Shown here one piece after another: positions 3,687 to 64,000 of a DNA stretch of 64,000 nt (position 1 is the stretch's first letter; each line of letters starts with the position of its first letter). Source of the DNA: Candidatus Hadarchaeum sp. (GTDB taxonomy: Archaea; Hadarchaeota; Hadarchaeia; Hadarchaeales; Hadarchaeaceae); assembly GCA_020725895.1 (NCBI GenBank), contig DYTO01000001.1:30894-94893 (forward strand), written 5' to 3'. A model generated the notes under the pieces. That model ran no database searches, had not been told where the DNA came from, and saw only the letters and a list, made by a program, of their open reading frames with translations. The translations under genes were made by a program, and so were the position numbers.

Positions 3687-4076
3687 GTGAAAGATATGAA
3701 AGAAAATGAGTTCAATTATGGCTGGATTGTTGGATTTATAGAGAGCGAAGGTTTTTTTACGCAAAACACGATAAAAATAACCCGAAAATCCAAAAAGAGG
3801 CTCTTAAAATACAAATATATAAATCCCGCCTTTTTCCTCGTAAGCAAGGACATTTCTGCACTTGAAGCGGCGAAAGGCATTTTGGGAATGGGAAAAATCA
3901 AAGAGCACGGCTCGATTTTCCACCTCGAGATTAGGAGGAAAGACGATCTCCTGCGGCTGGTCAACTTTTTGGATGGGAAATTGAAGTCGAGCGCGCGCAC
4001 CCAACAGTTTGAACGCTGGAAGCAAATGGTTCTGCAGTGGAAATCAAGGAGTTGGGGAGAGGGGTCTTTTATTTAA
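3687..4076 (+). CDS. free-standing LAGLIDADG-family homing endonuclease-like protein (single-motif, homodimer type)
   Basis: 129 aa. NYGWIVGFIESEGFF matches the LAGLIDADG consensus (G-F-I-[DE]-[GS]-[DE]-G-x-F). KGILGMGKIKEHGSIFHLEIRRKDDLLRLVNFLDGKLKS is the typical downstream core. The local sequence (about 3600-4080) is markedly AT-rich against a genome of about 55% GC. Confidence 0.6.
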   Translation: MKDMKENEFNYGWIVGFIESEGFFTQNTIKITRKSKKRLLKYKYINPAFFLVSKDISALEAAKGILGMGKIKEHGSIFHLEIRRKDDLLRLVNFLDGKLKSSARTQQFERWKQMVLQWKSRSWGEGSFI

Positions 4077-4102
4077 CAAAAGACGTAGTTTTGTGTGTTC
4101 AC

Positions 4103-5098
4103 ATGGAAAAATTCGAAACCGTGATGAGAGGAGTGAGCGAAGCCGTGACGGAGGAGGAGCTGCGCGAGATAATCTCACGCGAAAATTTCTCTGTTTATTG
4201 CGGTTACGAGCCATCCGGAAAAATACACTTCGGCCATATGCTCACAGTCAACAAGCTAATCGATTTCCAAAAGATAGGCGCGCGAACGGTGGTTTTGCTC
4301 GCGAACATGCACGCGTACCTGAATGACAAGGGATCTTTAGAGGAAATAAGAAAAATCGCGGAATACAACAAGAGCTGCTTCATCGCACTCGGTCTAGACC
4401 CCAAAAAGACCGAGTTTTTGCTCGGCTCCGACTTCCAGCTCAAGCCAGATTACACCACAGATGTCATGCGGATGGCCCTGAGGACGACGTTGCTGAGGGC
4501 CAAGCGCTCCATGACTGAAATCGCGAGGCACATGGACGATCCAGACGTTGCGCAGGTCATCTACCCTTTGATGCAGGCGGTCGATATCGCGCATCTCAAG
4601 GCGGACGTGGCGGTAGGCGGCACAGACCAGCGAAAGGTCCACATGATCGCGCGCGAAAACCTACCTCTCCTGGGGTACAGAAAGCCAGTCTGCGTTCACA
4701 CGCCGCTTCTCCACGGGTTGGACGGGTCCGATAAAATGTCTTCCAGCAAGGCTAACTTCATATCAGTCGACGACGCGCCAGAAGTCATCCGAGACAAGCT
4801 GATGAAGGCTTTTTGCCCGCCAAAGCAGACGGACGATAACCCTGTTATAGAATATGCCGAACACATGGTGTTCCCGAAATTCGAGCGGCTAGAGATTGAC
4901 AGGCCGCTGAAGTACGGCGGGCACCTGGACGTCGAAAGCCCGAAAAAGCTGAAGGAAATGTACCGCGCGGGGGAGCTGCACCCGATGGACTTGAAAAAGG
5001 CAGTTTCCGAGGCCGTTGTCAGAGCCCTTGATCCAGTCAGGAAATACTTCGACAAACATCCAAAAACCGCGCGAAGCCTTTTCACGAATCTCTTTTAA
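4103..5098 (+). CDS. tyrS: tyrosyl-tRNA synthetase, archaeal type
   Basis: The track ORF 4037..5098 contains MEKFETVMRGVSEAVTEEELREI ... CGYEPSGKIHFGH (HIGH-class motif) ... KMSSSKANFI (KMSKS-like). I prefer the start at ATG 4103 because the 4037 start overlaps the LAGLIDADG ORF. Length is about 332 aa, typical of archaeal TyrRS. Confidence 0.9.
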   Translation: MEKFETVMRGVSEAVTEEELREIISRENFSVYCGYEPSGKIHFGHMLTVNKLIDFQKIGARTVVLLANMHAYLNDKGSLEEIRKIAEYNKSCFIALGLDPKKTEFLLGSDFQLKPDYTTDVMRMALRTTLLRAKRSMTEIARHMDDPDVAQVIYPLMQAVDIAHLKADVAVGGTDQRKVHMIARENLPLLGYRKPVCVHTPLLHGLDGSDKMSSSKANFISVDDAPEVIRDKLMKAFCPPKQTDDNPVIEYAEHMVFPKFERLEIDRPLKYGGHLDVESPKKLKEMYRAGELHPMDLKKAVSEAVVRALDPVRKYFDKHPKTARSLFTNLF

Positions 5099-5113: not shown

Positions 5114-5953
5114 ATGTTGGGGGTTGAGATGCGCTCAAGACCTAGATCGATTTCGATAACGTCCGGGAAGGGCGGCACAGGCAAGACCACGGTAACAGCA
5201 AACTTGGGCATCGCACTTGGGATACTCGGCAAGAGGGTCACGATTCTTGATGCCGATTTGACGATGGCGAACTTGTCCATTGTCATGGGAATGCACCAGG
5301 TAAAGACAAGTTTTCTCGACGTGTTGGCGGGGAAGGCCGATTTGAGCGCAGCCATTTACGAAAACCACGGCATCAAAATCGTTCCGACGGGGTTCCGTTT
5401 CGAGGACTCGCACGAGGCGCTTTCAAAGGCGAAGCGGCAGCGCGTGGAAGAGGCCATAAATAAGCTGATCCAGGACACGGATTTCCTTCTAATAGACGCC
5501 CCGGCAGGCATACAGGACGCGACAATAGTTTCAATAGCCGCGGCGAACGAGATGCTGGCGGTCTGCAACCCAACATACACAAGCCTCGTCGACGCTTACA
5601 AAGTCATTCGCTATGCGAACGTGATTGGCGCGTGGACCCGTGGAGTCGTGGCAAACCGCGTTGGCAAAAGAGCCGAACTGCCGAGCAGCGAGATTGAGCA
5701 GTTCATGGGGAAGACCCTAGGAAGCATGCCGGTTCTGGCGGAGATCCCCGAGGACTCGAGAGTCCAAGAGGCAGAGCTTGAGGGGGTACCCGTGGTCGTT
5801 TACGAGCCGAACTGCGCTGCCTCGGTTGCCATCAATCGCTTGGCGAAGGTCATTTCAAGCGAAGCCGCTCTGCCACAAATCTCTGACAGGAAAGAAAGCT
5901 TGGCAGAGACGACAAGGCGCCTTGCGCGTGCCCTGACGGCCAGAAATGTATAA
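5114..5953 (+). CDS. minD: MinD/ParA-family P-loop ATPase, paralog 1 of 3
   Basis: Deviant Walker A ITSGKGGTGKTT, ILDADL, LLIDAPAG (Walker B); overall MinD architecture. An alternative start at M 5129 is possible. Confidence 0.8.
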   Translation: MLGVEMRSRPRSISITSGKGGTGKTTVTANLGIALGILGKRVTILDADLTMANLSIVMGMHQVKTSFLDVLAGKADLSAAIYENHGIKIVPTGFRFEDSHEALSKAKRQRVEEAINKLIQDTDFLLIDAPAGIQDATIVSIAAANEMLAVCNPTYTSLVDAYKVIRYANVIGAWTRGVVANRVGKRAELPSSEIEQFMGKTLGSMPVLAEIPEDSRVQEAELEGVPVVVYEPNCAASVAINRLAKVISSEAALPQISDRKESLAETTRRLARALTARNV

Positions 5954-6347: not shown

Positions 6348-6633
6348 GGAACCGATCTAACCACATATCTCATTTTTTCGACCACATTGATTATTCGAGT
6401 TAACAGAAAAATCATTTTTGTTTAATCGTAGTTATACAATAGTTTAATTGTATTGACACAGCATATAAACAATTCTACTTTATTTAAATACATATCGTAA
6501 AAATACGAAAACCTGTGTAGTTTCTACCGGCCCTGCCGGCTTTATACTCGTTTCGAAAAACATCGGAATGGCACCCTTCGGCATCCGCTTTAAACACCGC
6601 CAAAGTCGCTACCCGGTATTGGAAGTGTAACAA

Positions 6634-8292
6634 ATGAAACGCAGAACGGAAGGGAGCATTCGAGTGGTTGCGGCGATATCATTGCTGTTTGTAATGTTTT
6701 TAATTACTTCTTCATTTGCTGCGGCGGCAAAGGGTGATCAAAAGACAAATGATAAAGAAGAGAAGAACACGCCGAAAAACACATTGAAGAGCAATCCCGG
6801 AAAATGGGCCGAAGTTTCCACACAGAAAGCAAATGATCAATCTTCAGTAGACGATAAAAAAGACAAAGGCAGTTCGACGCCAGCGCCACCTGTAGAAGAA
6901 CCAGAGGTAGAAGTCGATCTTCGACAGCAGGAGTTTCCTCAACTGGGGCGTCATCGACTGGCGTCTCAACTACTGGTTCCTCAACTGGGGCGTCATCGAC
7001 TGGCGTCTCAACTACTGGTTCCTCAACTGGCTCTTCTGCTGCAGGTTCCTACAGTTGAGGAAACCCCAGTTATCGAGGAGCCGGCAATTGAAACCCCTGT
7101 TGTGGAAGAGCCGGCCGCCCCCGCAGAGGAAATAGTGGTGGAAGTACCAACAGAGGCACCAATAGTTGAGGAGGCGCCGATTGAAGAAGAGCCAATTGTT
7201 GAGGCGACAGTAGAGGATCAGCCCGAAGTTCCAGAAGTTCAAGAACAATTTCCAGAAGAACCAGATGTAGAAACTCCAAGTTCCGAAGCCGAAGAAGTTA
7301 ATGTTGAGGAGCAAACAGTTGAAGAGCCAATAGGCGAAGAGCCAATTTCTGAAGATACAGTTGAGGAAACCCCAGTTATCGAGGAGCCGGCAATTGAAAC
7401 CCCTGTTGTGGAAGAGCCGGCCGAAATAGTTGAAGATGCCGCAGTAGAAACACCAGCAGAAGAAACTACTGTTGAGACGGCTGCCGAGGAACAAGTTGTT
7501 GAAGGACAGGATATCGAGGAACCTGTTGTAGAATCTCCGGTAGAGGAGACTAATGTCGATGATCAGATTACAGAAGAGCAAGTGGTCGAAGAACCCGTTG
7601 CTGAGGATGATATTGAGGAGACTGTCGAGGAGACAGCCGCCGTGGAAGAAATAGCGGTTGAGCAGCCTGTTGTTGAAGAGCAGGTAGCAACGACCGAAGT
7701 CGCAGCAACTCAAATAGTGAGCCAGAGCACGGTCAGCGTAGTTTCGTACAATCAACCAAGTGTTGCCACATCTGTGCAATCGACAGTGGCGGTCTCTGCA
7801 ATGAATTTGACAAAGGCAGAGGTCGTAACAGTAGAAAGAGTTTACCGCCAACCAGTTGTGATAACACAGACGGAAGCCGCACCTCAACCAGCGCCGTCAA
7901 CATCCCCGGCGGTACAGATAGCACAGGTTTCAACGCCGGAATTGGTGAGCGGGAGTTCTGATCAAGCGCCGTCACTGCAAACAAATACAATAAACCCGGC
8001 CGGATTGTCGACGGTTAATGCCGCTCCAACCGACATGACCATCACGGGTGCCGGACTCGGGTTTTTGGTGTTACTATTATTCGTCGCGGGCGGGCTGCTG
8101 AGACCGAAACTTTTGCCCCCCTCCATCGGTCTTAAAAAATTGCAGCCCGCCAACATAATCAAGATCAGGGTCTACAAGAGAGTCGGGCCGATACCGATTG
8201 AGCCAGCACCGGAAAGGCCGAACAGGTTGAAGGTTCTCGATAACAAGAAAATTTTGGCGCTTCTGGAAACGCCACGGATGGTAAGGGGGTGA
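6634..8292 (+). CDS. cell-surface acidic repeat protein (signal peptide, E/V/P-rich repeats, C-terminal TM anchor and basic tail)
   Basis: 552 aa. N-terminal VVAAISLLFVMFLITSSFAAAA signal, then many PxVEEP/ETPV-type acidic repeats, then ITGAGLGFLVLLLFVAGGLLRPK TM anchor. The long antisense ORF 7012..7887 is a repeat artifact. Confidence 0.7.
   Translation: MKRRTEGSIRVVAAISLLFVMFLITSSFAAAAKGDQKTNDKEEKNTPKNTLKSNPGKWAEVSTQKANDQSSVDDKKDKGSSTPAPPVEEPEVEVDLRQQEFPQLGRHRLASQLLVPQLGRHRLASQLLVPQLALLLQVPTVEETPVIEEPAIETPVVEEPAAPAEEIVVEVPTEAPIVEEAPIEEEPIVEATVEDQPEVPEVQEQFPEEPDVETPSSEAEEVNVEEQTVEEPIGEEPISEDTVEETPVIEEPAIETPVVEEPAEIVEDAAVETPAEETTVETAAEEQVVEGQDIEEPVVESPVEETNVDDQITEEQVVEEPVAEDDIEETVEETAAVEEIAVEQPVVEEQVATTEVAATQIVSQSTVSVVSYNQPSVATSVQSTVAVSAMNLTKAEVVTVERVYRQPVVITQTEAAPQPAPSTSPAVQIAQVSTPELVSGSSDQAPSLQTNTINPAGLSTVNAAPTDMTITGAGLGFLVLLLFVAGGLLRPKLLPPSIGLKKLQPANIIKIRVYKRVGPIPIEPAPERPNRLKVLDNKKILALLETPRMVRG
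6937..7030 (+). repeat. 42-bp tandem repeat (2.2 copies) in inverted orientation relative to the gene's other repeats
   Basis: The unit cctcaactggggcgtcatcgactggcgtctcaactactggtt occurs at 6937-6978 and 6979-7020, plus a partial third copy. Its reverse complement reads PVVETPVDDAPVEE in an open frame, which matches the protein's acidic repeat style. The forward strand instead encodes the odd QLGRHRLASQLLVP x2. It is flanked by the 9-bp inverted pair cctcaactg / cagttgagg. Confidence 0.6.
7051..7116 (+). repeat. 66-bp perfect direct repeat, copy 1 (copy 2 at 7357-7422)
   Basis: acagttgaggaaaccccagttatcgaggagccggcaattgaaacccctgttgtggaagagccggcc is identical at both sites, 306 bp (102 codons) apart and in frame. 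Confidence 0.8.
7357..7422 (+). repeat. 66-bp perfect direct repeat, copy 2
   Basis: Identical to 7051-7116. Confidence 0.8.
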
Positions 8293-13696: not shown

Positions 13697-14545
13697 ATGA
13701 TGCAAAAAGCCGCGCCAACAGCCGCAATGCTTTTCCTTTTGCTGTCTTTAGCAATGCCCTTGGTCGGCGCAGACACATACACGATAGCGCCTGGAGGCAC
13801 ATACATAGTTAATTTCAACGTGAAGAAACCCGCGTTTGTAAACCTGAACGAAGGCAAGTGGCAAGTAAGGGTATATTTTTACACAAGCACGAGCTGCTAC
13901 AACGACGGTTCATGGTGGCAGGCGAGCGGCGACTGGATATACAGCGGCTGGTATGAGGACCGGTACATCGGGGAGGCATGGGGGGGGTCTCCAGAGACAA
14001 AAGAGCACAACGTGTCCACGAAAATCGTTAGCTACCCAAGGCCAGCAGCGGACATAGATCACGGGATGACAGAGCTACCGCTCGGGAGCACTGTGAATTT
14101 CAGGTTAAGAGTACTGCTCGAGCTTGACAAGGAGCCGGTCTTTTCGGGAGGAGGCGAGACTGAGTCGGGGGTAGTGTCCTTCATGATTGGAGGAACGGCG
14201 TACCAATACCAGTACACAGTTGACTTTTACGGGGATACTGAATTGGTCACGAGCAATCCGGAAAAGATGAAGATAAGCCAGAGTTCTTCCGGGGTGTGGC
14301 AGTTGACGATCGACCGGACACTTTCGGCATCCACCAGCGAGTCGGCGTCAAAGAGCGGGATATTTATACTCCCGGACCCCTTGGAAATCGATCTTGCATC
14401 CAGCGCATCTCCCGAGCAGTCGTTAGAACTCCCCTTGGAAGTGAAGATCGTCTCCGGGATAACGGTGTCATTGGTGGTCGCCGGTCTCGTGGCATACATT
14501 GCAATGAAAAAACACGGTGGGGGTGAAATTTTTGTCGAACACTAG
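13697..14545 (+). CDS. secreted, membrane-anchored protein, paralog A (signal peptide, beta-rich ectodomain, C-terminal TM)
   Basis: 282 aa. Signal MLFLLLSLAMPLVGA; ectodomain motifs VRVYFYTS and KIVSYPRPA are shared with the downstream paralog; C-terminal TM ITVSLVVAGLVAYIAM. Confidence 0.65.
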   Translation: MMQKAAPTAAMLFLLLSLAMPLVGADTYTIAPGGTYIVNFNVKKPAFVNLNEGKWQVRVYFYTSTSCYNDGSWWQASGDWIYSGWYEDRYIGEAWGGSPETKEHNVSTKIVSYPRPAADIDHGMTELPLGSTVNFRLRVLLELDKEPVFSGGGETESGVVSFMIGGTAYQYQYTVDFYGDTELVTSNPEKMKISQSSSGVWQLTIDRTLSASTSESASKSGIFILPDPLEIDLASSASPEQSLELPLEVKIVSGITVSLVVAGLVAYIAMKKHGGGEIFVEH

Positions 14546-14579
14546 AAGCTTTTTATGCAGCCATTTTGATAAGCAAAGG

Positions 14580-15689
14580 ATGCCGAAAATGAAGCGCCGG
14601 ATAGGGCTGCTGGCCGCTTTCGCGGTCGCGTTTGTAGTTCTAGCGTCAATTCAAACCTCACCTGTCGCGGCCGACGTCCAGTCAGTCCCCTCATTTGGGG
14701 TAGAGGTCACAGATTATCCGACGACGATTTCTCCGGGCGCATCATACACGATCGCGGTTAGCGTTTCTCGGCCAGAAGGCATGCCGCTTCCCAGTTGGGC
14801 TTCAGGTGATTCGCCCCCGAAATGGGAGATCAGGACGTATTTTTATGACGGCTTGAACGCTTACAGCGAAGGCGAAATGACCGACATCGGCGGTACAAAA
14901 CTATATACTGGATGGTGGGACCATCGCGTTCAGGGCGATTCTTGGACGGCCACAATGACGGACACACGGAATTTCGACATCCCAAACAAAATCGTCTCTT
15001 ACCCGCGTGCCGCAGATGAGATAACCGATGGAAAAATGAACGAGATTCCATTCGGGGAGGAGGTCAAACTAAAAGTAAAGTTGAGATTGAGGTGGGGGGA
15101 TTCGCAACTTCAGTTCAAAAACATCGATAATGACGAGGAGAACGAGTTGACTTTCACATACTACGGCGTGGAGTACGGTGGAGATTACACGGAAATAAAA
15201 GCCAATGTTAAATATCGAGTTGGAAGCGTTTATCTTGAAAAGAGCGAGGGCAACTACTGGCAAATAGATTACGAAACGATAAAGCAGGGAATCCTAGTTT
15301 CTGGCTCAGCGGGAGGCCTGCCGATAGAATTGATCGGGGGCGGAGTGGTCGCTCTTGTCGCCGTTGGAGCGATAATCGGTTTCATGAAGAAGCGCGGCGG
15401 CGGGGAAGCAAAGTACGAGGAATATTCTCAGCCTGCGCAGGCGCCATCGATGGCACTGCCACCAACCACATATCAAATGCCGACCCAAGCGCCCACACCG
15501 ACTTATCAGCAGGCGCCAACACAAGCGTATCCGCAAGTGCCTGCGCAAGCCACGCCACAAGCACCTCCACAAACATATCAGGTCCCGACACAAGCGCCTC
15601 CGCAGGCGCCACAGCAAGCGCAACAGAGCGCACAACCTCAGCAGCCCGAAGCGAAGAAGAAGAAAGAGAAAGACGACTTTGATTTCTAG
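14580..15689 (+). CDS. secreted, membrane-anchored protein, paralog B, with P/Q/T-rich cytoplasmic tail
   Basis: Shares EIRTYFYDG and KIVSYPRAA with paralog A. Signal peptide, TM GGGVVALVAVGAIIGFM, then an APTQ-rich low-complexity tail ending KKKKEKDDFDF. Start taken at MPKMKRR; the track starts at 14517. Confidence 0.65.
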   Translation: MPKMKRRIGLLAAFAVAFVVLASIQTSPVAADVQSVPSFGVEVTDYPTTISPGASYTIAVSVSRPEGMPLPSWASGDSPPKWEIRTYFYDGLNAYSEGEMTDIGGTKLYTGWWDHRVQGDSWTATMTDTRNFDIPNKIVSYPRAADEITDGKMNEIPFGEEVKLKVKLRLRWGDSQLQFKNIDNDEENELTFTYYGVEYGGDYTEIKANVKYRVGSVYLEKSEGNYWQIDYETIKQGILVSGSAGGLPIELIGGGVVALVAVGAIIGFMKKRGGGEAKYEEYSQPAQAPSMALPPTTYQMPTQAPTPTYQQAPTQAYPQVPAQATPQAPPQTYQVPTQAPPQAPQQAQQSAQPQQPEAKKKKEKDDFDF

Positions 15690-16390
15690 GTGCGCAGGAG
15701 TTTCCTGGCCAAGTTAGTTATCGCAGAGTACGCCGAGGACTTTGGTGACGACACCATTAGCGGGACCCCTTCTTTCAGAGCCTTCATCACGGCGTCGTCT
15801 TCAGGAACAGTCCCAAGCAACGGCACATTCATGATCTCTTTTATCTCATCCTTGTCAAGCTCGAATTCCTCGCCCCTGACGCGGTTGAGAACGAACCCGA
15901 TTGGCCGAGACCCCAAAAATTCCGCGACAAGGCGGGTTTTCATGCAGTCGGAAACAGCAACCATGTCGGGTGTTGTCACAAGCAAAGTCTCGCTGGAGGA
16001 CCTGAGCGCAGCCACGGTTTCTCTCCTCAGACCCCCCGAGGTGTCAATCAAGACGAAATCCGCCTTCACAGCAAGATTTTTCATTATCTCTGGCAGCTGC
16101 TCAGGGCGCGTCCTCTTTATCTGTTGCAGGGTCACCGCCGCCGGAGCGATTTTAACCCCCATCGGCCCCGTGTAAAGGACGTTGTCGAACACAGTTTCGC
16201 CTACTATGGCGTCGTTTATTGTGTAGATCGCCTTCTCAAGCTTGAAAAGGAGCGCGAGATCAGGCGTTGTGAAACACGCGTCGATTATTATCGTCTCCTT
16301 GCCCATCTTGGCAAGCGCGAGGCCTAGGTTCGCAACTAGCGTGGTGCGCCCAACTCCTCCCTTCCCTGATGCAACAGCGATAACCCGCAT
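15686..16390 (-). CDS. minD: MinD/ParA-family ATPase, paralog 2 of 3
   Basis: MRVIAVASGKGGVGRTT deviant Walker A, then FVLIDTSGG. Start taken at internal ATG 16390; the track ORF extends to 16483. The 3' end overlaps the paralog B stop by 4 nt, convergent. Confidence 0.8.
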   Translation of the reverse strand: MRVIAVASGKGGVGRTTLVANLGLALAKMGKETIIIDACFTTPDLALLFKLEKAIYTINDAIVGETVFDNVLYTGPMGVKIAPAAVTLQQIKRTRPEQLPEIMKNLAVKADFVLIDTSGGLRRETVAALRSSSETLLVTTPDMVAVSDCMKTRLVAEFLGSRPIGFVLNRVRGEEFELDKDEIKEIMNVPLLGTVPEDDAVMKALKEGVPLMVSSPKSSAYSAITNLARKLLRT

Positions 16391-16476
16391 ATAACCACCA
16401 GACCTCTTTAACAGGTTTGTAAATTGATATCCTTTTTCGCTTTTAAATAGGGCCCGACTAAATAAGGAGGGGGAGA

Positions 16477-17670
16477 ATGCCACAAAAATACGATGTAGTA
16501 GTCGTGGGGGCGGGGCCAGCAGGACTGGCGGCAGCGAGTTCGGCTGCGGCGGAAGGCGCGAAGACCCTAGTGCTGGAAATGCGAGCGCAGGTCGGCGGAC
16601 AGTTGAATTTTGAAAGCTTGGTGTCTCAGGAGTTGGCGAAGGACTTCAAAGGCGCCGCTGTCGGCGAAATCAGAGAATTGAGGCTGATCTCTCCCAAAGA
16701 AAAACTTGCGGTCAGGGGAAAAGTAGGAAAGATTCTCGACAGGGAAGAAGTTTCCAGGATTTTGGCCAACAAGGCGGTGTCTTCTGGAGCCGAGATATGG
16801 ATCAACTCGCCCGTGAAGCACCTTTTGGCAAACGATGGGATTGTCCGCGGCGTGAAAGCCGAGTCCGGCAGTTGGTCCGAGATCGTGAACTCTGAAGTGC
16901 TAATAGACGCCACAGGAAGCGCGGGTCAATTTTCGAGCATTTTCTTGAGGAAATTCTTGAAAAAAGAATGGGCATTCGAGGAACTGGCTTTTTCAAACGA
17001 ATATCTGATGGCCAATTCAAACGTCACCGCGCCTGAAATTTACTTCAACTCATACGTTGCGCCGGGCGGCCGGGCCTGGATATACCCGTTCGGGGCTGGG
17101 AACTCCTTGGCCGGAATCTACGGCATAAGGATCCATCCGGACACGGCGTTGGACGAGTTCATAGGAAGGGTTTCCCCTAGCTCGCTCACAAAAGCCTCCC
17201 CGATAGTTTCAACAAGAGGCCAAATCCCGCTTCAGGGCCCGCTGGATCAAACTTGCGGCAATGGGATAATTTCAGTGGGGGCGGCAGCAGGCCAAATTAA
17301 CCCCCTCACAGGCAACGGCTTACGGTACGCGCTAGCGTGCGGGGAAATCGCCGGGAGGGCCGCCGTCGAGGCGGTCACGGAAGGCGAAGTTTCGGAGTCC
17401 AGACTTTCTGAAGCCGACAAGAATTGGAAATCCATATTCTCCTCGGAATTCGAAGCGTGCAAAGCCGTTCATTCTTTCCTGAAAGTTTCGCAGGACAAAA
17501 AGATGGACAGCATTTTGAAAGTACTGAAAGGCAGTCCGAATGCAAGGAGATCTTTCACAAACGTTTTCACAGACTCAAAACTGAATCACTCTCTAAAGAC
17601 GCTGGTGAAGAGCGAAGTTGGCAAAATCCTCGGGCAAGAAGTCTCAGACAGGGTTTTGAATCTTGTCTAG
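16477..17670 (+). CDS. geranylgeranyl reductase-family FAD-dependent oxidoreductase
   Basis: MPQKYDVVVVGAGPAGL (GxGxxG FAD site). The 397 aa length and overall similarity fit archaeal digeranylgeranylglycerophospholipid reductase. Confidence 0.8.
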   Translation: MPQKYDVVVVGAGPAGLAAASSAAAEGAKTLVLEMRAQVGGQLNFESLVSQELAKDFKGAAVGEIRELRLISPKEKLAVRGKVGKILDREEVSRILANKAVSSGAEIWINSPVKHLLANDGIVRGVKAESGSWSEIVNSEVLIDATGSAGQFSSIFLRKFLKKEWAFEELAFSNEYLMANSNVTAPEIYFNSYVAPGGRAWIYPFGAGNSLAGIYGIRIHPDTALDEFIGRVSPSSLTKASPIVSTRGQIPLQGPLDQTCGNGIISVGAAAGQINPLTGNGLRYALACGEIAGRAAVEAVTEGEVSESRLSEADKNWKSIFSSEFEACKAVHSFLKVSQDKKMDSILKVLKGSPNARRSFTNVFTDSKLNHSLKTLVKSEVGKILGQEVSDRVLNLV

Positions 17671-41069: not shown

Positions 41070-42002
41070 ATGATTACGAACGAAGTCAAGAAAATCGCGC
41101 ACGGCATAAAAACTATGGAAATCCGCGGGGCAGGAAAAATAGCCAGGGCCGCCGCGCTGGCGATGAAGATCGCCGCTGAAAATTCAAAGGCGAAGAACGC
41201 GGAAGATTTTTTGGCCGAGATGGAGAAGGCTTCAAATTTCATAGAATCCACGAGGCCGTCGGCAGTTTCCCTTCCAAACGCTTTGAGATACGTCATGAGG
41301 GGCGCACGCAAAGCTGAGGGCGGAGTGGACGAGATTCGCGAGGGCATCGTTTCGAGAGCCGACGAATTCATAAAGAGTTCGGAGGAGGCCGTGAAGAAAA
41401 TCGGAGAAATAGGCGCCAACAGGATATCGGACGGCGACACCGTGATGACCCACTGCAACAGCCAGAGCGCCCTTTCTGTTATAAAGACGGCTTTCAAGCA
41501 AGGCAAAAAAATACAAGTTTACCTGACGGAGGCGCGGCCTTTCTACCAGGGCCACATAAGCGCCAGAGAAATCCTGAAAGCCGGGATTCCAACCACGATG
41601 TTCGTCGATTCGGCGGTCAGGCACTTGATCAGGGATGTTGACAAGGTAGTTGTCGGCGCGGACAGCGTCGCCGCCAACGGGGCAGTCGTTAACAAGATAG
41701 GCACTTCCCAGATAGCCTTGGCGGCCCATGAAGCGAGAGTCCCGTTTTTCGTCGCCGCTGAGACTTACAAATTCCACCCCGGTACTTTGGTTGGACGGCT
41801 TGTCGAAATCGAGGAGAGGGACCCGAAGGAGGTGGCCGACCCAAAGAACTTCCCCGGCATCAAGATCAGGAACCCTTCATTCGACGTCACCCCGGCGGAA
41901 TACGTTGACCTGATAATAACTGAGCGGGGCATAATTCCTCCGTCCGCGGCTTACGCAATAATCAGCGATCTTTTCGGATGGGAATTCGGGGAAAAAACCT
42001 GA
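41070..42002 (+). CDS. eIF-2B alpha/beta/delta-family protein (ribose-1,5-bisphosphate isomerase or aIF-2B subunit)
   Basis: IRGAGKIARAAALAM, MTHCNSQSAL, VVGADSVAANGAVVNKIGTSQIALAAHEARVPFFVAAETYKF: e2b2 family signatures. 310 aa. Confidence 0.75.
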   Translation: MITNEVKKIAHGIKTMEIRGAGKIARAAALAMKIAAENSKAKNAEDFLAEMEKASNFIESTRPSAVSLPNALRYVMRGARKAEGGVDEIREGIVSRADEFIKSSEEAVKKIGEIGANRISDGDTVMTHCNSQSALSVIKTAFKQGKKIQVYLTEARPFYQGHISAREILKAGIPTTMFVDSAVRHLIRDVDKVVVGADSVAANGAVVNKIGTSQIALAAHEARVPFFVAAETYKFHPGTLVGRLVEIEERDPKEVADPKNFPGIKIRNPSFDVTPAEYVDLIITERGIIPPSAAYAIISDLFGWEFGEKT

Positions 42003-42635
42003 TCAGGTCCTTTCACGCGTCCTGTGTATAACTCCCTTCAGAGTACCCATTTCTATTACCTTGAGCTTCGCGTTCAAGTAATCGACGAAGGTTTTTGCAG
42101 GAACGCCGAGTTGCCAAAGATCGACGTAGACCTGCCCTACTGGGACGACGCCCTTGCCGCTTATTTTCGAAAGATGTTCGTCCTGCTTCAAAACAACTAT
42201 GGTGTTTGTCCCGTGATGCGCCTCAAATTTTTTCTTAATCTCAACCGCGTCTCCGTAGACGTGTACTTCCCGATACCTCTCGACGGTTTCACCGAACTTT
42301 ATCTTGAATGCTGAGTAAGCAGTGAGCAAAGAGCCGGCGGGGACGTTTTTCTCTATCTTATCTATTGTCGTGCTAGTGCTGATTCTTGAAACGACATCCT
42401 CGTCAAGGTCCCTGTTGTTGGCCCAGAAAAGCAAGATTCGACCAACGTCAATAACTCTGAAGCCAAGCGGTTTTTTCTCTATTGCACCGATCCTGTCTAA
42501 TTTTTGCATTACCGGGTTCACAGTACCCAAAGAGACCCCGCACGACTCCGCCACCGATTTTTGGTTCATGAAGCGGATATTCTCTTCGTAGAACAGGTAC
42601 AGTATTTGCCGCAGAACTCTTTCCCACCTCTTCAC
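42003..42635 (-). CDS. wHTH transcriptional regulator with conserved C-terminal domain (paralog of 61411..62034)
   Basis: N-terminal HTH (SVAESCGVSLGTVNPVMQKLDRIGAIE); C-terminal VVPVGQVYVDLWQLG matches APVPQVYVDIYSVGG in the paralog. Divergent from the 42737 operon. Confidence 0.5.
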   Translation of the reverse strand: MKRWERVLRQILYLFYEENIRFMNQKSVAESCGVSLGTVNPVMQKLDRIGAIEKKPLGFRVIDVGRILLFWANNRDLDEDVVSRISTSTTIDKIEKNVPAGSLLTAYSAFKIKFGETVERYREVHVYGDAVEIKKKFEAHHGTNTIVVLKQDEHLSKISGKGVVPVGQVYVDLWQLGVPAKTFVDYLNAKLKVIEMGTLKGVIHRTRERT

Positions 42636-42736
42636 AAAAACTCCTTTATTTCCGACGTATTAAAATGTTTCGAAAAAATTTGAAAACGTTATTTTGCTTA
42701 AAAGCCGATAAATGCCGCGCGTGTTGAGATTAGATA

Positions 42737-43519
42737 GTGGGAGAAATGGGGAAAAAATCCCAGGCGGCAGCAGCGTTGGCAGCGATAATGCTGATTTGCT
42801 TAGGTCTCGGCACAACTCTTGCGATTGATAACGAGAATTACTACTCTTATACCTATCAAGAGTTCGGCGACCAATTCTTGAAGTTTTTCACAGTATGGTC
42901 GGAAAATACAGTAGATAACTCGTCGGTCGTTTATGGTTACTTGTACGACAAAAAACCAAGCTGGGCTTCTTCACCACCGATGACCGTGAGCTGCTATTTC
43001 AGCATCGAGAACACGGTTGAAATAAAAACGATGGATATTGAATTCAGAGTCACGAAAAGTTGGTTGGACACAATCAAGATTTCTGAAAACGACGTGGTAT
43101 TGTTGGAATACGCGGGCAGCTGGGTCGAGCATCCAACTTCCTTGAAAGAAGCCGGTGAGACATATTACACGTACTCCTCGTCGTCGTCCGGGCTTTCGCT
43201 GTTCGCTGTCGGCGGGAGATCGGCGGAGTTACAGAGCCCACTGCTGCCAGTAATGCTCTTCGTAGCCGCCGTATTGGCAATTTCTATTGTTTACTGGTTC
43301 GTCGTCAGGCCGCGCAGATTTTTCGTGTCTCTCAAGAAATTGGAGAGGGATACTGGCGAAGAGATAGTCAGAGGAAGCGGAGGCAAAATCGAAGAGGAGT
43401 CGGAACAGATAGCCAAAATGAAGAGACGTACAAAGCCTCAAACGAAAAACATTAAATCAGGGAAAGATGCAGAAATTCTGAGGGAATTGAAGAAAAAAGC
43501 TGGAAAGAGGCGGGAGTGA
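42737..43519 (+). CDS. secreted, membrane-anchored protein (signal peptide, ectodomain, C-terminal TM and charged tail)
   Basis: Signal AALAAIMLICLGLGTTLA; TM LLPVMLFVAAVLAISIVYWFVV near the C-terminus; lysine-rich tail. Confidence 0.55.
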   Translation: MGEMGKKSQAAAALAAIMLICLGLGTTLAIDNENYYSYTYQEFGDQFLKFFTVWSENTVDNSSVVYGYLYDKKPSWASSPPMTVSCYFSIENTVEIKTMDIEFRVTKSWLDTIKISENDVVLLEYAGSWVEHPTSLKEAGETYYTYSSSSSGLSLFAVGGRSAELQSPLLPVMLFVAAVLAISIVYWFVVRPRRFFVSLKKLERDTGEEIVRGSGGKIEEESEQIAKMKRRTKPQTKNIKSGKDAEILRELKKKAGKRRE

Positions 43520-43818
43520 TGGATAGTCTAAGAGACGTCGATATAAAATACGTAGAGGCGGCTAAGAACAATCTTGACAAGCTTATTCTATGGATTCTCA
43601 GGACTCGCGGACCGTTGAGCCGGCACGAAATAGTCCAACACATATTCGCCTCCCACGGGTTTTTGCCTCGTCAAGAAAAGGTAGATGAAATGCTGGATAA
43701 TTTCATTCAAAAAAGCATAATCGAAAAGCAGGCAAACGGGTTGACGTCCGTTTTCATTTTAACTAAAAATGGAGTAAAGATCGCGTCCGATTCAAGCGAA
43801 GCTATTCGTATTTTATAA
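43516..43818 (+). CDS. small winged-helix protein (100 aa)
   Basis: LILWILRTRGPLSRHEIVQHIF...LTSVFILTKNG is wHTH-like. ATGA overlap with the upstream gene. Confidence 0.5.
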   Translation: MMDSLRDVDIKYVEAAKNNLDKLILWILRTRGPLSRHEIVQHIFASHGFLPRQEKVDEMLDNFIQKSIIEKQANGLTSVFILTKNGVKIASDSSEAIRIL

Positions 43819-43824
43819 AAAGAA

Positions 43825-44637
43825 ATGGTGGAGACCTTGGACCCCTCGAATCAAAAGCCTTTGAAAAAAATCCTGAGCGGGTTCGAGCGGGGGCGAAGAC
43901 CAAAGATAACCGCAAGACGGGCGTACATCTTGGGAGTTTTTTCATGTAAAGGCGGCGTCGGGAAGACAACGACCGCGGCCAACATCGGAACCGCGCTGGC
44001 GGAAAAATTGGGAGAAGGAATCCTCCTCGTCGAGGCAAATCTCTCCGCGCCAAACTTGGGGCTTCATCTGGGAATACTGGACGTAGAGACTAGCATGCAC
44101 GACGTCATGGCCGGAGCGGCCCCGATAGACAAAGCCATACACACCGTTGGAGGGAATTTGCAGGCCATACCTGGATCGCTCGCTTACGAGGAAGAAATCC
44201 ATTACGTGGATTTCAAAGCGAAGATCGAGCCGCTGAGAAGCAAATATAAGTTAATTATATTGGATGCGGGGCCAGGGCTCGGCGCAGAGGCGATTTCTTC
44301 GATAAAAGCAAGCGACGAGATGCTGATAGTCACGAATCCCGAAATCCCGACGATTGCGAGCACTCTCAGGACATTCAGGGCGGCCGAGCGATACAGGGTC
44401 CCGATAATGGGGACGGTGGTCAACAAGGTGCGCGGGAAGAATTACGAGGTTCCTCTTTCGGAGGTGAAAAAGAGCCTAGGCTGGCCGATTCTGATGTCTA
44501 TTCCGGACGATGAAAAGGTGAGGGAAAGTTTGACCGCCGGGGTGCCAGTAGTCAAATTCGCTCCTAAATCTTCTGCGGCGCGCGCCTTCAACGAACTAGC
44601 TGAGCGGATTTACGAGAAGCTAGGTTCCAAACTTTAA
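43825..44637 (+). CDS. minD: MinD/ParA-family ATPase, paralog 3 of 3
   Basis: ILGVFSCKGGVGKTTT deviant Walker A, ILDAGPG Walker B. 270 aa. Confidence 0.8.
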   Translation: MVETLDPSNQKPLKKILSGFERGRRPKITARRAYILGVFSCKGGVGKTTTAANIGTALAEKLGEGILLVEANLSAPNLGLHLGILDVETSMHDVMAGAAPIDKAIHTVGGNLQAIPGSLAYEEEIHYVDFKAKIEPLRSKYKLIILDAGPGLGAEAISSIKASDEMLIVTNPEIPTIASTLRTFRAAERYRVPIMGTVVNKVRGKNYEVPLSEVKKSLGWPILMSIPDDEKVRESLTAGVPVVKFAPKSSAARAFNELAERIYEKLGSKL

Positions 44638-44897
44638 CCCACTTTGTAGACTAGGTCCCCTTGTCGGCAGCGCTGCTCCGATTTCATCCCCACAGCCTGC
44701 CCCGGGCCCGCGTTTTGCACGTTCGCATGCTCAATCTGCATGGATTCGACTTTCTGCGCGTAATTGGAAGTCGGCCCCTCGACAGAGATCTTGTCGCCAA
44801 CTTTCAACTCGTCAGACAACTCTATCACGCAAACCCCGATCTTCGTGAAATAGTGGGTTATTTTTCCAACCAGCTTCTTTTCACCCTGTGTTTGCAC
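44634..44897 (-). CDS. small beta-barrel protein resembling EF-Tu domain 2
   Basis: GKITHYFTKIGVCVIELSDELKVGDKISVEG...ESMQIEHANVQNAGPGQAVGMK...QGDLVYK follows the EF-Tu/EF-1A domain-2 pattern. 87 aa. Confidence 0.45.
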   Translation of the reverse strand: MQTQGEKKLVGKITHYFTKIGVCVIELSDELKVGDKISVEGPTSNYAQKVESMQIEHANVQNAGPGQAVGMKSEQRCRQGDLVYKVG

Positions 44898-45035
44898 TCA
44901 CTTCACCGATTAACATTGAACTTTCAAGTTAAAAAATCTCTCGAATGTCACTACCGAGGCGCTCAATCAGTGCATCGACCATCAAGGGAAGTATTCTGGT
45001 TTGTCATTCAATTGAAAAAATTATCTGACGGAGCA

Positions 45036-61301: not shown

Positions 61302-61410
61302 ATCGGCTTGCGCGAGGATAAGTTTTTCGTTGGGGATTGGGAGGATTCGAGCCTTATTAGACCTTGTTTCACTAAATGGTGAAAAATATATATACTAACG
61401 AAATTAAAAA

Positions 61411-62034
61411 GTGAAACTGATGCACATGAAAATCGAGCGAATTTACCGTGAGCTCCTGTTGCGCAGCCTATCCAAGGAGTTTCTCACAAAACAGGAGGAC
61501 CTCGCCAGCCGCTGCCAGACTTCCATCGGCCTTGTAAGCAAGGCTGTGAAAAAGTTGGAAGATGCGCACGCGGTGGAGGCCACGAGGCAGGGCGTCCGGG
61601 TACTTTCCTCGGCGCGGGTCTTGAACATTTGGGCAACCGAACGCAAGCTTTCAAGGGACATTTTCGCGGCTTTTCGCCTGGATTCACTGGACAAGGTTGA
61701 AAAGGAATTGCCGCGTGCCGCGATAATCACCGCGTTCTCCGCATGGCGCGCATTGACCGGCAGGCGCCCGGCCGACTATTCGCGCATATACTTCTACGTA
61801 CGGGAAAGCGTGGATTTCGAACGCTGGTTCAGGTTTCGGGAGACCGGCGCAAGGAAGACCAATCCAAACGTTTTCGTCCTGAAAGCCGACGACCCGCACT
61901 TGTTGTCGACATCGGAGAGAGGGATTGCCCCCGTCCCGCAGGTATATGTCGACATATATTCGGTCGGTGGGCCCGAGGCGGCGCCATATCTTCGGGACAT
62001 CGCCGAGAGATATCCGGAGTTGAGCCCGTGGTAG
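61411..62034 (+). CDS. wHTH transcriptional regulator with conserved C-terminal domain (paralog of 42003..42635)
   Basis: HTH TKQEDLASRCQTSIGLVSKAVKKLEDAHAVE. C-terminal motifs shared with the paralog. Confidence 0.5.
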   Translation: MKLMHMKIERIYRELLLRSLSKEFLTKQEDLASRCQTSIGLVSKAVKKLEDAHAVEATRQGVRVLSSARVLNIWATERKLSRDIFAAFRLDSLDKVEKELPRAAIITAFSAWRALTGRRPADYSRIYFYVRESVDFERWFRFRETGARKTNPNVFVLKADDPHLLSTSERGIAPVPQVYVDIYSVGGPEAAPYLRDIAERYPELSPW

Positions 62035-62672
62035 AGTTTTGGCGCGACGAGACGGTCGAGCAGTCATGGCGGATTCTCGAGAAGCTGAACAAGATGGCAG
62101 ATTTTGTTGTAATAGGGGGCTGGGGGGTTTACCTCTGGACACGCAAGCTCAAGAGCCGCGACATCGACATATACATCGACCAGGAAAACTTCTACAAGCT
62201 GCAGGCAAGGGCGCTCAAGGATGGCATCGCGATCAAGCGCAACCCCCGGCTGAAAAAGTTCGAGATCGTGCTCGAGGGCACCGAGGTGGATATATACACG
62301 CCATTCATGTGCGGCCTCGCCATACCATGCGTCGACGTTTTCAGAAGTGGCATGATATCGAACGTCGAGGGTTTTAGGGTGGTCGCCCCCGAGCCGTTGC
62401 TTTTGCTAAAGGCCCAGGCGGCAAGGGAGAGGTGGGGCTCGGAGAAGGGGATGAAGGACAGGGTGGACATCATCTCCATGCTGGCTTTCGTGGACCTGAA
62501 ATACCCGGTCTTGAACGACCTCCTGAAAAAGCACGATGCCGAAAAGTCGCTGCGAAAGACGATCGTGAGGACTTTGAGGGATAGCAGGGCCGAATACAGG
62601 GCGATTGGGCTCAGGTACGAGAAGGAAGGCGTCAAGCTGGCAAGGGCCGTTGAAAAGAACCTTGCCGTTTAG
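62029..62672 (+). CDS. minimal nucleotidyltransferase-fold protein, hypothetical
   Basis: FVVIGGWGVYLWTRKLKSRDIDIYI is the hG[GS]...DhD NTase signature. I place the start at GTG 62029, overlapping the upstream stop (GTGGTAG); the track ORF 61743 carries a spurious N-terminus. Confidence 0.45.
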
Positions 62673-62977: not shown

Positions 62978-64000
62978 CTAGGTTTTTAAACCTCCGATGA
63001 GAGCTTTCATACTTCCCCTCATTCTCCTGAGCTGCTTCCTCGACGAGGACAACAGCCTCAGGATTTTCCCCGCATCCTTCACTTCCCTTCCGATCTCCAA
63101 CACGGCCCGGATGAAAAACTGGAGGACCTCCGCGAACGCACGCCTGCACAGCGCGCCTATCGTCTCCAGATAGACGTTCGCCCTCTCAGCAGCGCGGCCC
63201 ACAGAACCAAAAGAGAGGAGGGTATGCGCAGCGAGAATCATCTGGAGGTGTCGACTAACACCCCTGATCTTCCGCAGCTCGTACGCCTCCATACCCAAGT
63301 TCTGCTTCGCGTCCTTATAGAAGGCATCTATCTCGAAGCGCCTGGCGTATGTCCGCATCGTCCTGTTAGTCTCCCAGTCCAAGCGGTTGGTACAGTAAAA
63401 GTGGGGATCTTCCATTTTCTCGAATTTCTCTTCAGGATAAGAGACAATCACGCGCACTTTTCTCTCGAATCCCTTCAGCCGCACGGTCCTCGAGCACGCG
63501 CAGTAGACCTCCTTCGACCCGTCCTTGTGTTTGAGCACGACCAGCTCGAAGTCCTTCCTTGACAGGTCCTTGGCCCACTCAGATATGGGGCGGCCCCCTC
63601 CCGAAATCACGATCCTGTTCGACTTGCACCGGGTCACCCAGTCCTTCCCCAGCCCCTCCACGAGGCGCACGAACTCCACGTTGAAGTACCACGCGTCGAA
63701 GACGACGCACGAGAAAGGTATTCCGTGCCCAACCGCTTCCTCGACGAGTTCTGTGGCGAACTCGCACTTCGTCTTGAAGTTCTCCCCCGCCTGCCCATTC
63801 TTGATGTATATCCTGAAACCCAAGGGGAGGCTCAACCACTGTCTCGCGTAGTGGCTCGTGACGAGCTGGTGCCCCCACACGGGCTTTCCCTCGCTGGCGT
63901 CGTAGTGCCACCCCGTGCCTTCCATGTGCTTGCCCACATGGTGGGAGATGGTGTCGTCGATGATGAGGAGGCCACCCCCGAGTCCCCTTTCCTCCAGCCC
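62978..64000 (-). mobile_element. DDE transposase gene (IS4/IS701-like), N-terminus beyond window end
   Basis: The 319 aa visible include YARRFEIDAFYKDAKQNLGMEAYELRK, a Y-x2-R-x3-E/D-x6-K-like signature. The frame is still open at position 64000 in the upstream direction. Confidence 0.6.

Follow-up and report, generated by a model that had tools for sequence, protein, structure and literature searches.

A candidate chromosomal module of Hadarchaeota combining a MinD-like ATPase, a tail-bearing surface protein and a divergent winged-helix regulator

What is the partner of an archaeal MinD-like ATPase whose gene shares an operon with a membrane-anchored surface protein and a small winged-helix protein? 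This question is raised by a locus at positions 42,003 to 44,637 of a 64,000-nucleotide stretch of Candidatus Hadarchaeum sp. (GenBank assembly GCA_020725895.1, contig DYTO01000001.1, positions 30,894 to 94,893; the whole stretch is called the window below). An original prediction, made from the letters alone, described four genes here and suggested that the small protein is an adaptor rather than a pure regulator. The four open reading frames (ORFs) exist at the claimed coordinates and on the claimed strands: a regulator of 210 amino acids with a winged helix-turn-helix (wHTH) domain (42003..42635, minus strand) and, on the plus strand, a type I membrane protein of 260 residues (42737..43519), a small PadR-like winged-helix protein (ORF 43516..43818, 100 residues) and a divergent archaeal MinD-like ATPase of 270 residues (43825..44637). 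Comparison with homologous loci fetched from a metagenome collection, designated by L-numbers (L001, L004 etc.), gives about an even chance to the view that these genes form a Hadarchaeota-specific chromosomal module, in which an operator-based control layer would be combined with an effector layer made up of MinD, the cytoplasmic tail of the surface protein and the small protein. Archaeal MinD proteins are widespread and their targets mostly obscure; the locus offers a concrete and testable candidate partner, a repeated tail motif that stays linked to one MinD orthologous group through changes of gene order.

Conservation and rearrangement of the locus

The order of a regulator gene on the minus strand followed by the genes for surface protein, small wHTH protein and MinD on the plus strand is kept in L001, L004, L005, L011, L012/L013 and L037, and in part in L050 and L058. 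The operon and its divergent regulator thus constitute a conserved unit and not a chance adjacency, and the loss of the three-gene order in relatives that would have counted against the original prediction is not seen. All relatives recovered by scanning with back-translated peptides belong to the Hadarchaeota/Hadesarchaea, and L001 is the closest to the window locus. The four proteins diverge at very different rates: MinD is 67-93% identical among the module loci, and outside L001 the corresponding values are 47-56% for the regulator, ~31% for the surface protein and 20-40% for the small protein. In L004/L005, for example, MinD is 73%, the regulator 55% and the surface protein ~31% identical, and the small protein reaches 33-34% by tblastn or ~40% in a MAFFT alignment; the regulator is 56% identical in L011 and 47% in L012/L013. 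Among the module loci, the stop of the surface-protein gene and the start of the small-protein gene either overlap or are a few nucleotides apart, so that the two genes are translationally coupled. The overlap claimed for the window is real, the TGA stop codon of the 260-residue ORF (43517-43519) overlapping both possible starts of the small ORF, GTG at 43516 and ATG at 43519. In databases, the small protein has 99 residues and begins at ATG 43519, which makes this codon the likely start and gives a gene at 43519..43818.

A rearranged version of the locus, found in L007 and L074, separates what is constant from what varies. The MinD proteins of these two loci are 54-63% identical to the module MinDs, compared with 29-34% for the MinD paralogs of the window, and they share the same N-terminal extension and the SCKGG and ANLxAPNLG signatures, which clearly points to orthology with the module MinD. 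There is no small wHTH gene upstream of MinD in either locus, and MinD is convergent with a gene for a surface protein of 846 (L007) or 1091 (L074) amino acids; in L074, three paralogs of the 210-residue regulator, arranged in tandem, are encoded divergently from this surface-protein gene. The comparison thus identifies regulator, tail-bearing surface protein and MinD as the apparent conserved core, and marks the small protein as a lineage-specific addition, since the L007/L074 lineage lacks it. That the linkage survives the rearrangement in L007/L074 also argues for a non-random connection between MinD and the surface protein.

The surface-protein tail and the MinD-like ATPase

Hydropathy analysis of the 260-residue protein agrees with the predicted N-terminal signal-like stretch and single C-terminal transmembrane helix. 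Together with NCBIfam models and alignments, it gives a layout of signal peptide (residues 1 to ~30), PGF-pre-PGF domain (residues 81-158), transmembrane helix (~residues 169-190) and basic tail (residues 191-260). The PGF-pre-PGF domain (TIGR04213) scores 44.4 bits and passes the cutoff of 28 bits; its homologs score 54-90 bits, with strong matches in L007, L011, L012 and L004, and no match in the large surface protein of L074. As in PGF-CTERM/archaeosortase A substrates, such as S-layer and other surface proteins, the PGF-pre-PGF domain directly precedes the C-terminal transmembrane helix. Unlike in those substrates, the helix is followed not by a few basic residues but by a conserved tail of at least 70 residues, and the PGF-CTERM model does not match the 260-residue protein. 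Because of this tail, the protein probably remains a true transmembrane protein.

The tail (encoded at 43307..43516, plus strand) contains three basic, amphipathic motifs of the form phi-x-phi-L-K-[KR]-L, namely RPRRFFVSLKKLE (residues 191-203), QIAKMKRR (residues 224-231) and AEILRELKKK (residues 245-254), which are conserved in all homologs. The 846-residue L007 and 1091-residue L074 proteins carry them as well and end in a transmembrane helix followed by '..YR(F/L)..RP..(K/S)(P/Y)Y(L/V)MLKR(L/V)E..' and further '..LK(R/E)LE..' copies. The common denominator of these proteins is the tail and not the ectodomain, the L074 protein having no PGF-pre-PGF match. A search pattern consisting of a transmembrane helix, RP and phi-x-phi-K[KRQ]phi recognises the surface proteins of all module loci but two: L011, where the first tail motif reads SLAWL, and L058, a fragment at a contig end. 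Six-frame ORFs of the remaining fetched loci (305,000 amino acids) give no match to this pattern, and in the window it matches two of 510 six-frame ORFs, the 260-residue protein and 6634..8292, both near MinD paralogs. As the pattern was derived post hoc, its specificity is supportive and does not amount to a formal test. The large proteins of L007 (6793..9333, minus strand) and L074 (5260..8535, minus strand) contain in addition many tandem repeats of ~14 amino acids, W(Q/N)LIE(S/T)WTGTV(E/K/R)AP, and the L007 protein has an extra β-rich segment of ~110 residues between the second and third tail motifs.

As proposed, the window contains two further MinD-like genes; by tblastn, the ATPase is 34% identical to 5114..5953 (plus strand) and 29% to 15686..16483 (minus strand). 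Its best family is archaeal MinD (TIGR01969 minD_arch), and its score of 189.6 bits lies under the curated cutoff of 201.75, which the two window paralogs pass with 251 and 245 bits. The closest solved structures are those of Pyrococcus MinD (1ion/1g3q, E ~1e-40). The deviant Walker A motif SCKGGVGKTT (residues 40-49) with its signature lysine is kept in all orthologs. In E. coli MinD, the switch-I/Walker A' motif DxD comprises D38 and D40; in the module ATPase the sequence 'veanl' aligns to 'vdgdl' of Pyrococcus MinD, so that EAN stands in place of DxD. The Hadarchaeota orthologs have [DE]AN at this position, and three relatives from DPANN or unclassified archaea have DAN or DCN. This Asp-to-Asn change suggests that ATP hydrolysis is slow or altered; a scaffold or switch would be more compatible with this than an oscillator. 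All Hadarchaeota orthologs also share a basic, partly amphipathic N-terminal extension of ~35 residues. The last core helix ends with the C-terminal sequence ...AERIYEKLGSKL, and no additional membrane-targeting helix is evident. No minC or minE was found among the genes neighbouring the module, the only part of the window screened for them.

Known partners of ParA/MinD ATPases, such as MinE, the ParB N-terminus and McdB, typically contact the ATPase dimer via short basic amphipathic peptides. By this analogy, the MinD dimer may contact the tail of the surface protein, whose peptides resemble such partner-contact motifs on inspection. The operon would yield surface protein, small wHTH protein and MinD in coupled amounts, and the ATP-bound MinD dimer would engage the multivalent tail. 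Either the tail would tether MinD to the membrane, or MinD would cluster and position the surface protein. A tether would make sense for this MinD, which itself shows no obvious membrane-targeting helix at its C-terminus. The small protein could be a lineage-specific accessory that modulates the contact between MinD and the tail, or a second DNA-binding regulator.

The repeated co-occurrence of MinD-like ATPases and exported, anchored proteins in the window, which was part of the original prediction, is borne out. In a crude hydropathy screen, four proteins (6634, 13697, 14517 and 42737) clearly combine a signal peptide with a C-terminal transmembrane helix; each lies within approximately 1 kb of a MinD gene, three MinD genes being involved in total. 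The chance of three independent clusters of this kind is roughly estimated as ~0.01. The gene 6634..8292, located 680 nucleotides downstream of the MinD paralog 5114..5953, encodes a 552-residue surface protein with acidic repeats and the tail signature RPKLLPPSIGLKKLQ. The genes 13697..14545 and 14517..15689 encode tandem exported, C-terminally anchored proteins, the second with a long Q/P-rich tail, and are convergent with the MinD paralog 15686..16483 (minus strand), which has DAC in place of the switch-I DxD.

The regulator family and its candidate operator

The 210-residue protein consists of an N-terminal winged HTH (residues 1-60) and a C-terminal α/β domain (residues 63-200) with weak similarity to the nucleotidyltransferase fold. 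It has 92 homologs of ~211 residues, and those with a named source are from Hadarchaeota. In a 49-member alignment, P164, Q167, Y169, V170, D171, L172, W173, Q174 and G176 show no or almost no variation; they belong to a family motif that reads VP-VG-QVYVDLWQLG in the regulator. As predicted, the window contains only one paralog, 61411..62034 (31% identity over 182 residues by tblastn, E = 1.5e-25). The C-terminal motif said to be shared by the two proteins is indeed near-invariant, but its first position is not strictly valine; the paralog has AP, and the motif is better written [VA]P-x-x-QVYVD. The L001 regulator matches in two pieces (residues 1-122 and 145-210, at 6548..7124) and is called as a protein of 166 residues only, reflecting either regulator decay or an assembly error, and the corresponding operator carries one substitution, GTTTCGAAGAAATTTGAAA.

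In every module locus, the 19-nucleotide element GTTTCGAAAAAATTTGAAA is located ~32 nucleotides upstream of the regulator start. In the window, it occurs once, at 42667-42685, and forms part of the candidate operator GTTTCG-AAAAAATT-TGAAAA (42667..42686), an imperfect palindrome of the general form GTTTCG-N8-TGAAA(A/C) that lies between two divergent candidate promoters. When six intergenic regions are aligned, the block A-TGTTTCGAAAAAATTTGAAA is invariant or deviates by one base and a TAAAA block is kept, whereas the flanking DNA diverges. The exact 19-mer is present in 56 loci of the metagenome collection, and in five of these a regulator homolog follows at the same offset of ~32 nucleotides; the remaining 51 are unrelated, AT-rich chance matches.

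Other branches of the regulator family show the same architecture. A second paralog group has GTTTCG-N8-CGAAAC in L072 and L075, 37-38 nucleotides upstream of the regulator start, and the variant GTTTCG-N8-CGAAAA in L076. The window paralog is preceded by GTTTCAC-N6-GTGAAAA (61366-61385), directly before an ATATATA box. The GTTTC-N10-GAAAC arrangement is thus also found upstream of two other paralog groups, and the three groups have half-site, symmetry and position in common, with an A/T-rich TATA-like box between palindrome and regulator gene in every case. At the module locus, this box is ATTTTAA (42660..42666, minus strand; found by sequence inspection). It precedes the regulator start by ~25 nucleotides and directly adjoins the half-site CGAAAC, which therefore occupies the position of a transcription factor B recognition element (BRE). 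On the other side, the intergenic alignment reveals the TATA-like boxes TTAAAAG and GATAAAT (42698..42713, plus strand), 24-39 nucleotides upstream of the GTG start codon at 42737, and the operator is located upstream of them. The TATA-like boxes on both sides would act as promoters, and the proximal half-site at the BRE position of the regulator promoter would fit autorepression. A scan of the locus for bacterial promoters and terminators was uninformative, the host being an archaeon.

The palindrome is very likely the operator of the 210-residue family, which is by far the best candidate for its binding protein because palindrome-bearing paralog loci lack the small wHTH gene. The regulator, presumably as a dimer, would bind GTTTCG-N8-TGAAA(A/C) between the divergent TATA-like boxes and control the surface-protein operon as well as its own gene, and its paralogs would do likewise beside other, often giant, surface-protein genes. 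Members of the second paralog group (L072, L075 and L076) are always divergent from a giant surface-protein gene rich in Big_13/Ig domains, encoding proteins that range from at least 1779 to at least 3672 residues. From this repeated divergent arrangement, the family members appear to be regulators dedicated to surface-protein genes. The 210-residue protein itself looks like a true regulator with an identifiable operator. A regulator family with the operator GTTTCG-N8-YGAAAC that is apparently dedicated to surface-protein genes would aid the annotation of Hadarchaeota and the prediction of cell-envelope regulons. Upstream of 6634..8292 (region from 6550), the sequence GTTTCGAAAAACATCGGAA matches the operator at 15 of 19 positions; it lies 66 nucleotides before the start and is followed by a TTTAAA box, and this gene may belong to the same regulon.

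The window paralog overlaps the following gene, a nucleotidyltransferase of the DUF2204/ANT(2'') type (~62043..62672; Pfam DUF2204 / Aminoglyc_resit), and has a weak match to AbiEi_2 (E = 0.026). These two genes resemble a pair of the AbiEi/AbiEii type in which the regulator comes from the family of the 210-residue protein. AbiEi-type regulators share with the 210-residue protein an N-terminal wHTH, a C-terminal α/β domain and a palindrome upstream of their own gene, and the AbiEi-like Rv2827c structure (1zel) is a weak full-length Foldseek match. It could be argued from these similarities that the locus serves as a toxin-antitoxin or defence element, with the 210-residue protein as an AbiEi-like antitoxin. 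Unlike AbiEi systems, however, 42003..42635 has neither a significant AbiEi match nor an adjacent nucleotidyltransferase gene or other toxin partner; its downstream neighbour is a convergent IF-2B-family gene, and the regulator paralogs are consistently paired with surface-protein genes. The antitoxin explanation therefore has very little to recommend it for the module locus and fits at most the paralog 61411..62034. A search of the four proteins against PADLOC-DB returned generic HTH and P-loop matches only, with E values no better than 1e-5, and a function in defence was rejected on this ground.

The small winged-helix protein and competing explanations

The AlphaFold2 (AF2) model of the small protein (predicted local distance difference test score 83) agrees with the winged helix originally proposed and consists of an N-terminal helix, a wHTH with its wing at residues 68-81 and a C-terminal helix. 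The best Foldseek matches are PadR, RosR, F93 and AF1382 (TM-score ~0.7), with 0.70-0.74 for the PadR-like structures 1xma and 4esf; AspA, the centromere binder of pNOB8, and TubR are ranked lower (0.61-0.65). A profile of the family matches the PadR-like TA0346 in the PDB with E = 9e-5 and AspA with E = 0.21 only. The window protein itself remains below every Pfam family threshold and has no match to PadR (PF03551), which is weakly detected in two of six family members (best E = 6.6e-4); one homolog is annotated as PadR by JGI. The original prediction had held that a match to a well-known unrelated family would weigh against an adaptor. Such a match is found in part, as the model and profile identify a divergent, remotely PadR-like wHTH protein, and PadR proteins are DNA-binding regulators. 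Fold, size and C-terminal helix are those of the PadR family (PF03551; TA0346, 3ELK), from which the small protein differs by its sub-threshold Pfam score, its tiny and fast-evolving family and its atypical position within an operon. Five relatives were found in a word-indexed search of 5.8 billion entries and ~12 true ones in an exhaustive profile search of 1.84 billion representatives. Since the exhaustive search added only ~10 members, the family is truly narrow.

In an alignment of 16 small-protein sequences, the invariant positions are confined to the hydrophobic core. No polar or basic DNA-contact residue is conserved, a finding that is not decisive on DNA binding, and the wing tip keeps K/R residues. 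The predicted recognition helix is neutral to acidic; this was considered as an argument against DNA binding and dropped, the corresponding helix of canonical PadR proteins being similarly neutral. On balance, a role as DNA-binding regulator is slightly more likely than one as adaptor or modulator, and both fall short of an even chance. An indispensable adaptor is made less likely by L007/L074, which keep the linkage of MinD and surface-protein genes without a small wHTH gene.

Several explanations compete with the proposed module. The small protein could be an ordinary PadR-type transcription factor that serves as second regulator or autoregulator and has no adaptor function, with MinD and the surface protein working without it. 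The PadR-like fold with a C-terminal helix of the dimerisation type, the TA0346 profile match, the weak Pfam and JGI assignments, the wing-tip K/R residues and the persistence of the MinD-surface linkage without the small gene in L007/L074 are all in line with this explanation. On the other hand, no DNA-contact residue accompanies the invariant core, the 210-residue regulator is the better explanation for the single intergenic element that is conserved, and a position between a structural gene and an ATPase gene, with a start/stop overlap, is unusual for such a factor; we consider this alternative possible, without thinking it probable. The opposite view, in which a divergent Hadarchaeota MinD is recruited to the membrane by, or spatially organises, type I surface proteins via a multivalent tail with three LK[KR]L motifs, and a PadR-derived protein that no longer binds DNA has become adaptor or modulator in one sub-clade, is unlikely in this complete form. 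If true, it would define, for the first time, a membrane protein as cargo or tether of an archaeal MinD, and it would mean that a transcription-factor fold was turned into an adaptor of a positioning system. It is more improbable still that there is no functional link at all and that the genes are accidentally co-transcribed, MinD acting on division, motility or other targets. HVO_0596, a gene that adjoins Haloferax volcanii MinD2 and shows no phenotype (PMC11588486), provides a precedent for a functionally silent MinD neighbour, and the proteins adjoining the MinD paralog 15686..16483 have no tail motif; but the linkage between the MinD ortholog and the tail protein has survived changes of order and orientation between lineages, and a MinD paralog is the neighbour of each of the four clear type I proteins in the window.

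The presence of a small wHTH protein and a Walker-type ATPase in one operon also recalls DNA segregation, as in AspA/ParA or type Ib ParA-CBP pairs, where a centromere-like site would be bound and the DNA moved, perhaps with the membrane protein as anchor. The pNOB8 AspA-ParB-ParA cassette likewise combines a small PadR-like wHTH protein with a ParA/MinD ATPase, AspA and TubR are among the Foldseek matches, and the ATPase has weak ParA-partition matches. However, the AspA match comes far behind those to PadR regulators, and the partition matches reach 52 bits compared with 189.6 bits for archaeal MinD. Moreover, there are no repeat arrays in 41900-44950 and a single palindrome only, the L007/L074 ortholog does without the small wHTH, and in all relatives the module sits among housekeeping genes. 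The flanking genes encode glutamyl-tRNA synthetase, an Lrp/AsnC regulator, an IF-2B family protein, deoxyhypusine synthase, an HD hydrolase and acetyl-CoA synthetase. The locus is a stable chromosomal one and not a mobile element. In contrast to the pNOB8 cassette, the module is chromosomal, has a MinD-type ATPase and an exported membrane protein as third gene, and contains no ParB-like adaptor. A segregation function is thus very improbable.

The module proposed here, with its operator-based control layer and its MinD-tail-small-protein effector layer, has difficulties of its own. The Asp-to-Asn change in switch I raises doubts about normal ATP hydrolysis and hence about dynamic positioning. 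The tail motifs could have other ligands, for example nucleic acid, lipid head groups or a different cytoskeletal protein. Because the anchored proteins beside the MinD paralog 15686..16483 lack the LKKL motif, the recurrent association of MinD with anchored proteins is not uniformly explained by the tail. The small wHTH protein, rather than the 210-residue protein, could in principle bind the operator, and all relatives are metagenome-assembled genomes.

Known systems and genomic surroundings

The module ATPase shares the common fold and the deviant Walker A signature lysine with other archaeal MinD proteins (Pyrococcus 1G3Q/1ION; H. volcanii MinD4 and MinD2), and is distinguished from them by its score below the TIGR01969 cutoff, by EAN/DAN in place of DxD and by its 35-residue basic N-terminal extension. 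We know of no description of a type I surface-protein linkage for haloarchaeal MinDs. In Haloferax, MinD4 and MinD2 have been described only in archaellum and chemotaxis positioning, and no direct partners were found (PMC11588486). The MinD2 N-terminus matters for function, and downstream of MinD2 lies a small conserved gene, HVO_0596, for which an interaction is predicted (PMC11588486). Like MinD2, the module MinD may have an important N-terminal region and a small co-transcribed protein; unlike that of MinD2, its small partner gene is located upstream of MinD and encodes a wHTH protein. The Dip divisome-positioning system has no sequence relation to the module (PMC13228585).

In McdA/McdB, PpfA/TlpT and BcsQ/BcsR, the gene of a MinD/ParA ATPase likewise has genes for a small partner and for a membrane or cargo protein next to it. 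In contrast to these systems, the partner in the module would be the tail of the surface protein, and the small protein is a PadR-like wHTH protein; no bcs, chemotaxis or carboxysome genes are located near the module. A description of the module was not found in the literature on Hadesarchaea MinD, archaeal MinD gene neighbourhoods and PGF-pre-PGF.

The segment 42001..44000 has a GC content of 46%, compared with 51-55% in the flanks, and shows no signs of mobile elements; the drop is largely due to the AT-rich intergenic region and the Lys-rich tail. On the minus strand, 44634..44897 encodes an 87-residue β-barrel protein with weak matches to Peptidase_U32_C and EF-Tu domain 2. The gene is convergent with the MinD gene, overlapping its stop codon by 4 nucleotides; it adjoins the module in L001, L004, L005 and L011 and lies one gene farther away in L012. 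Elsewhere in the window, a small ORF (3687..4076, plus strand) upstream of and overlapping the tyrosyl-tRNA synthetase gene (4037..5098) appears from its sequence to be similar to free-standing LAGLIDADG homing endonucleases (..YGWIVGFIESEGFF..), and a putative DDE-type transposase of 319 residues (62978..63937, minus strand) is encoded at the window end, beside the pair of regulator paralog and nucleotidyltransferase.

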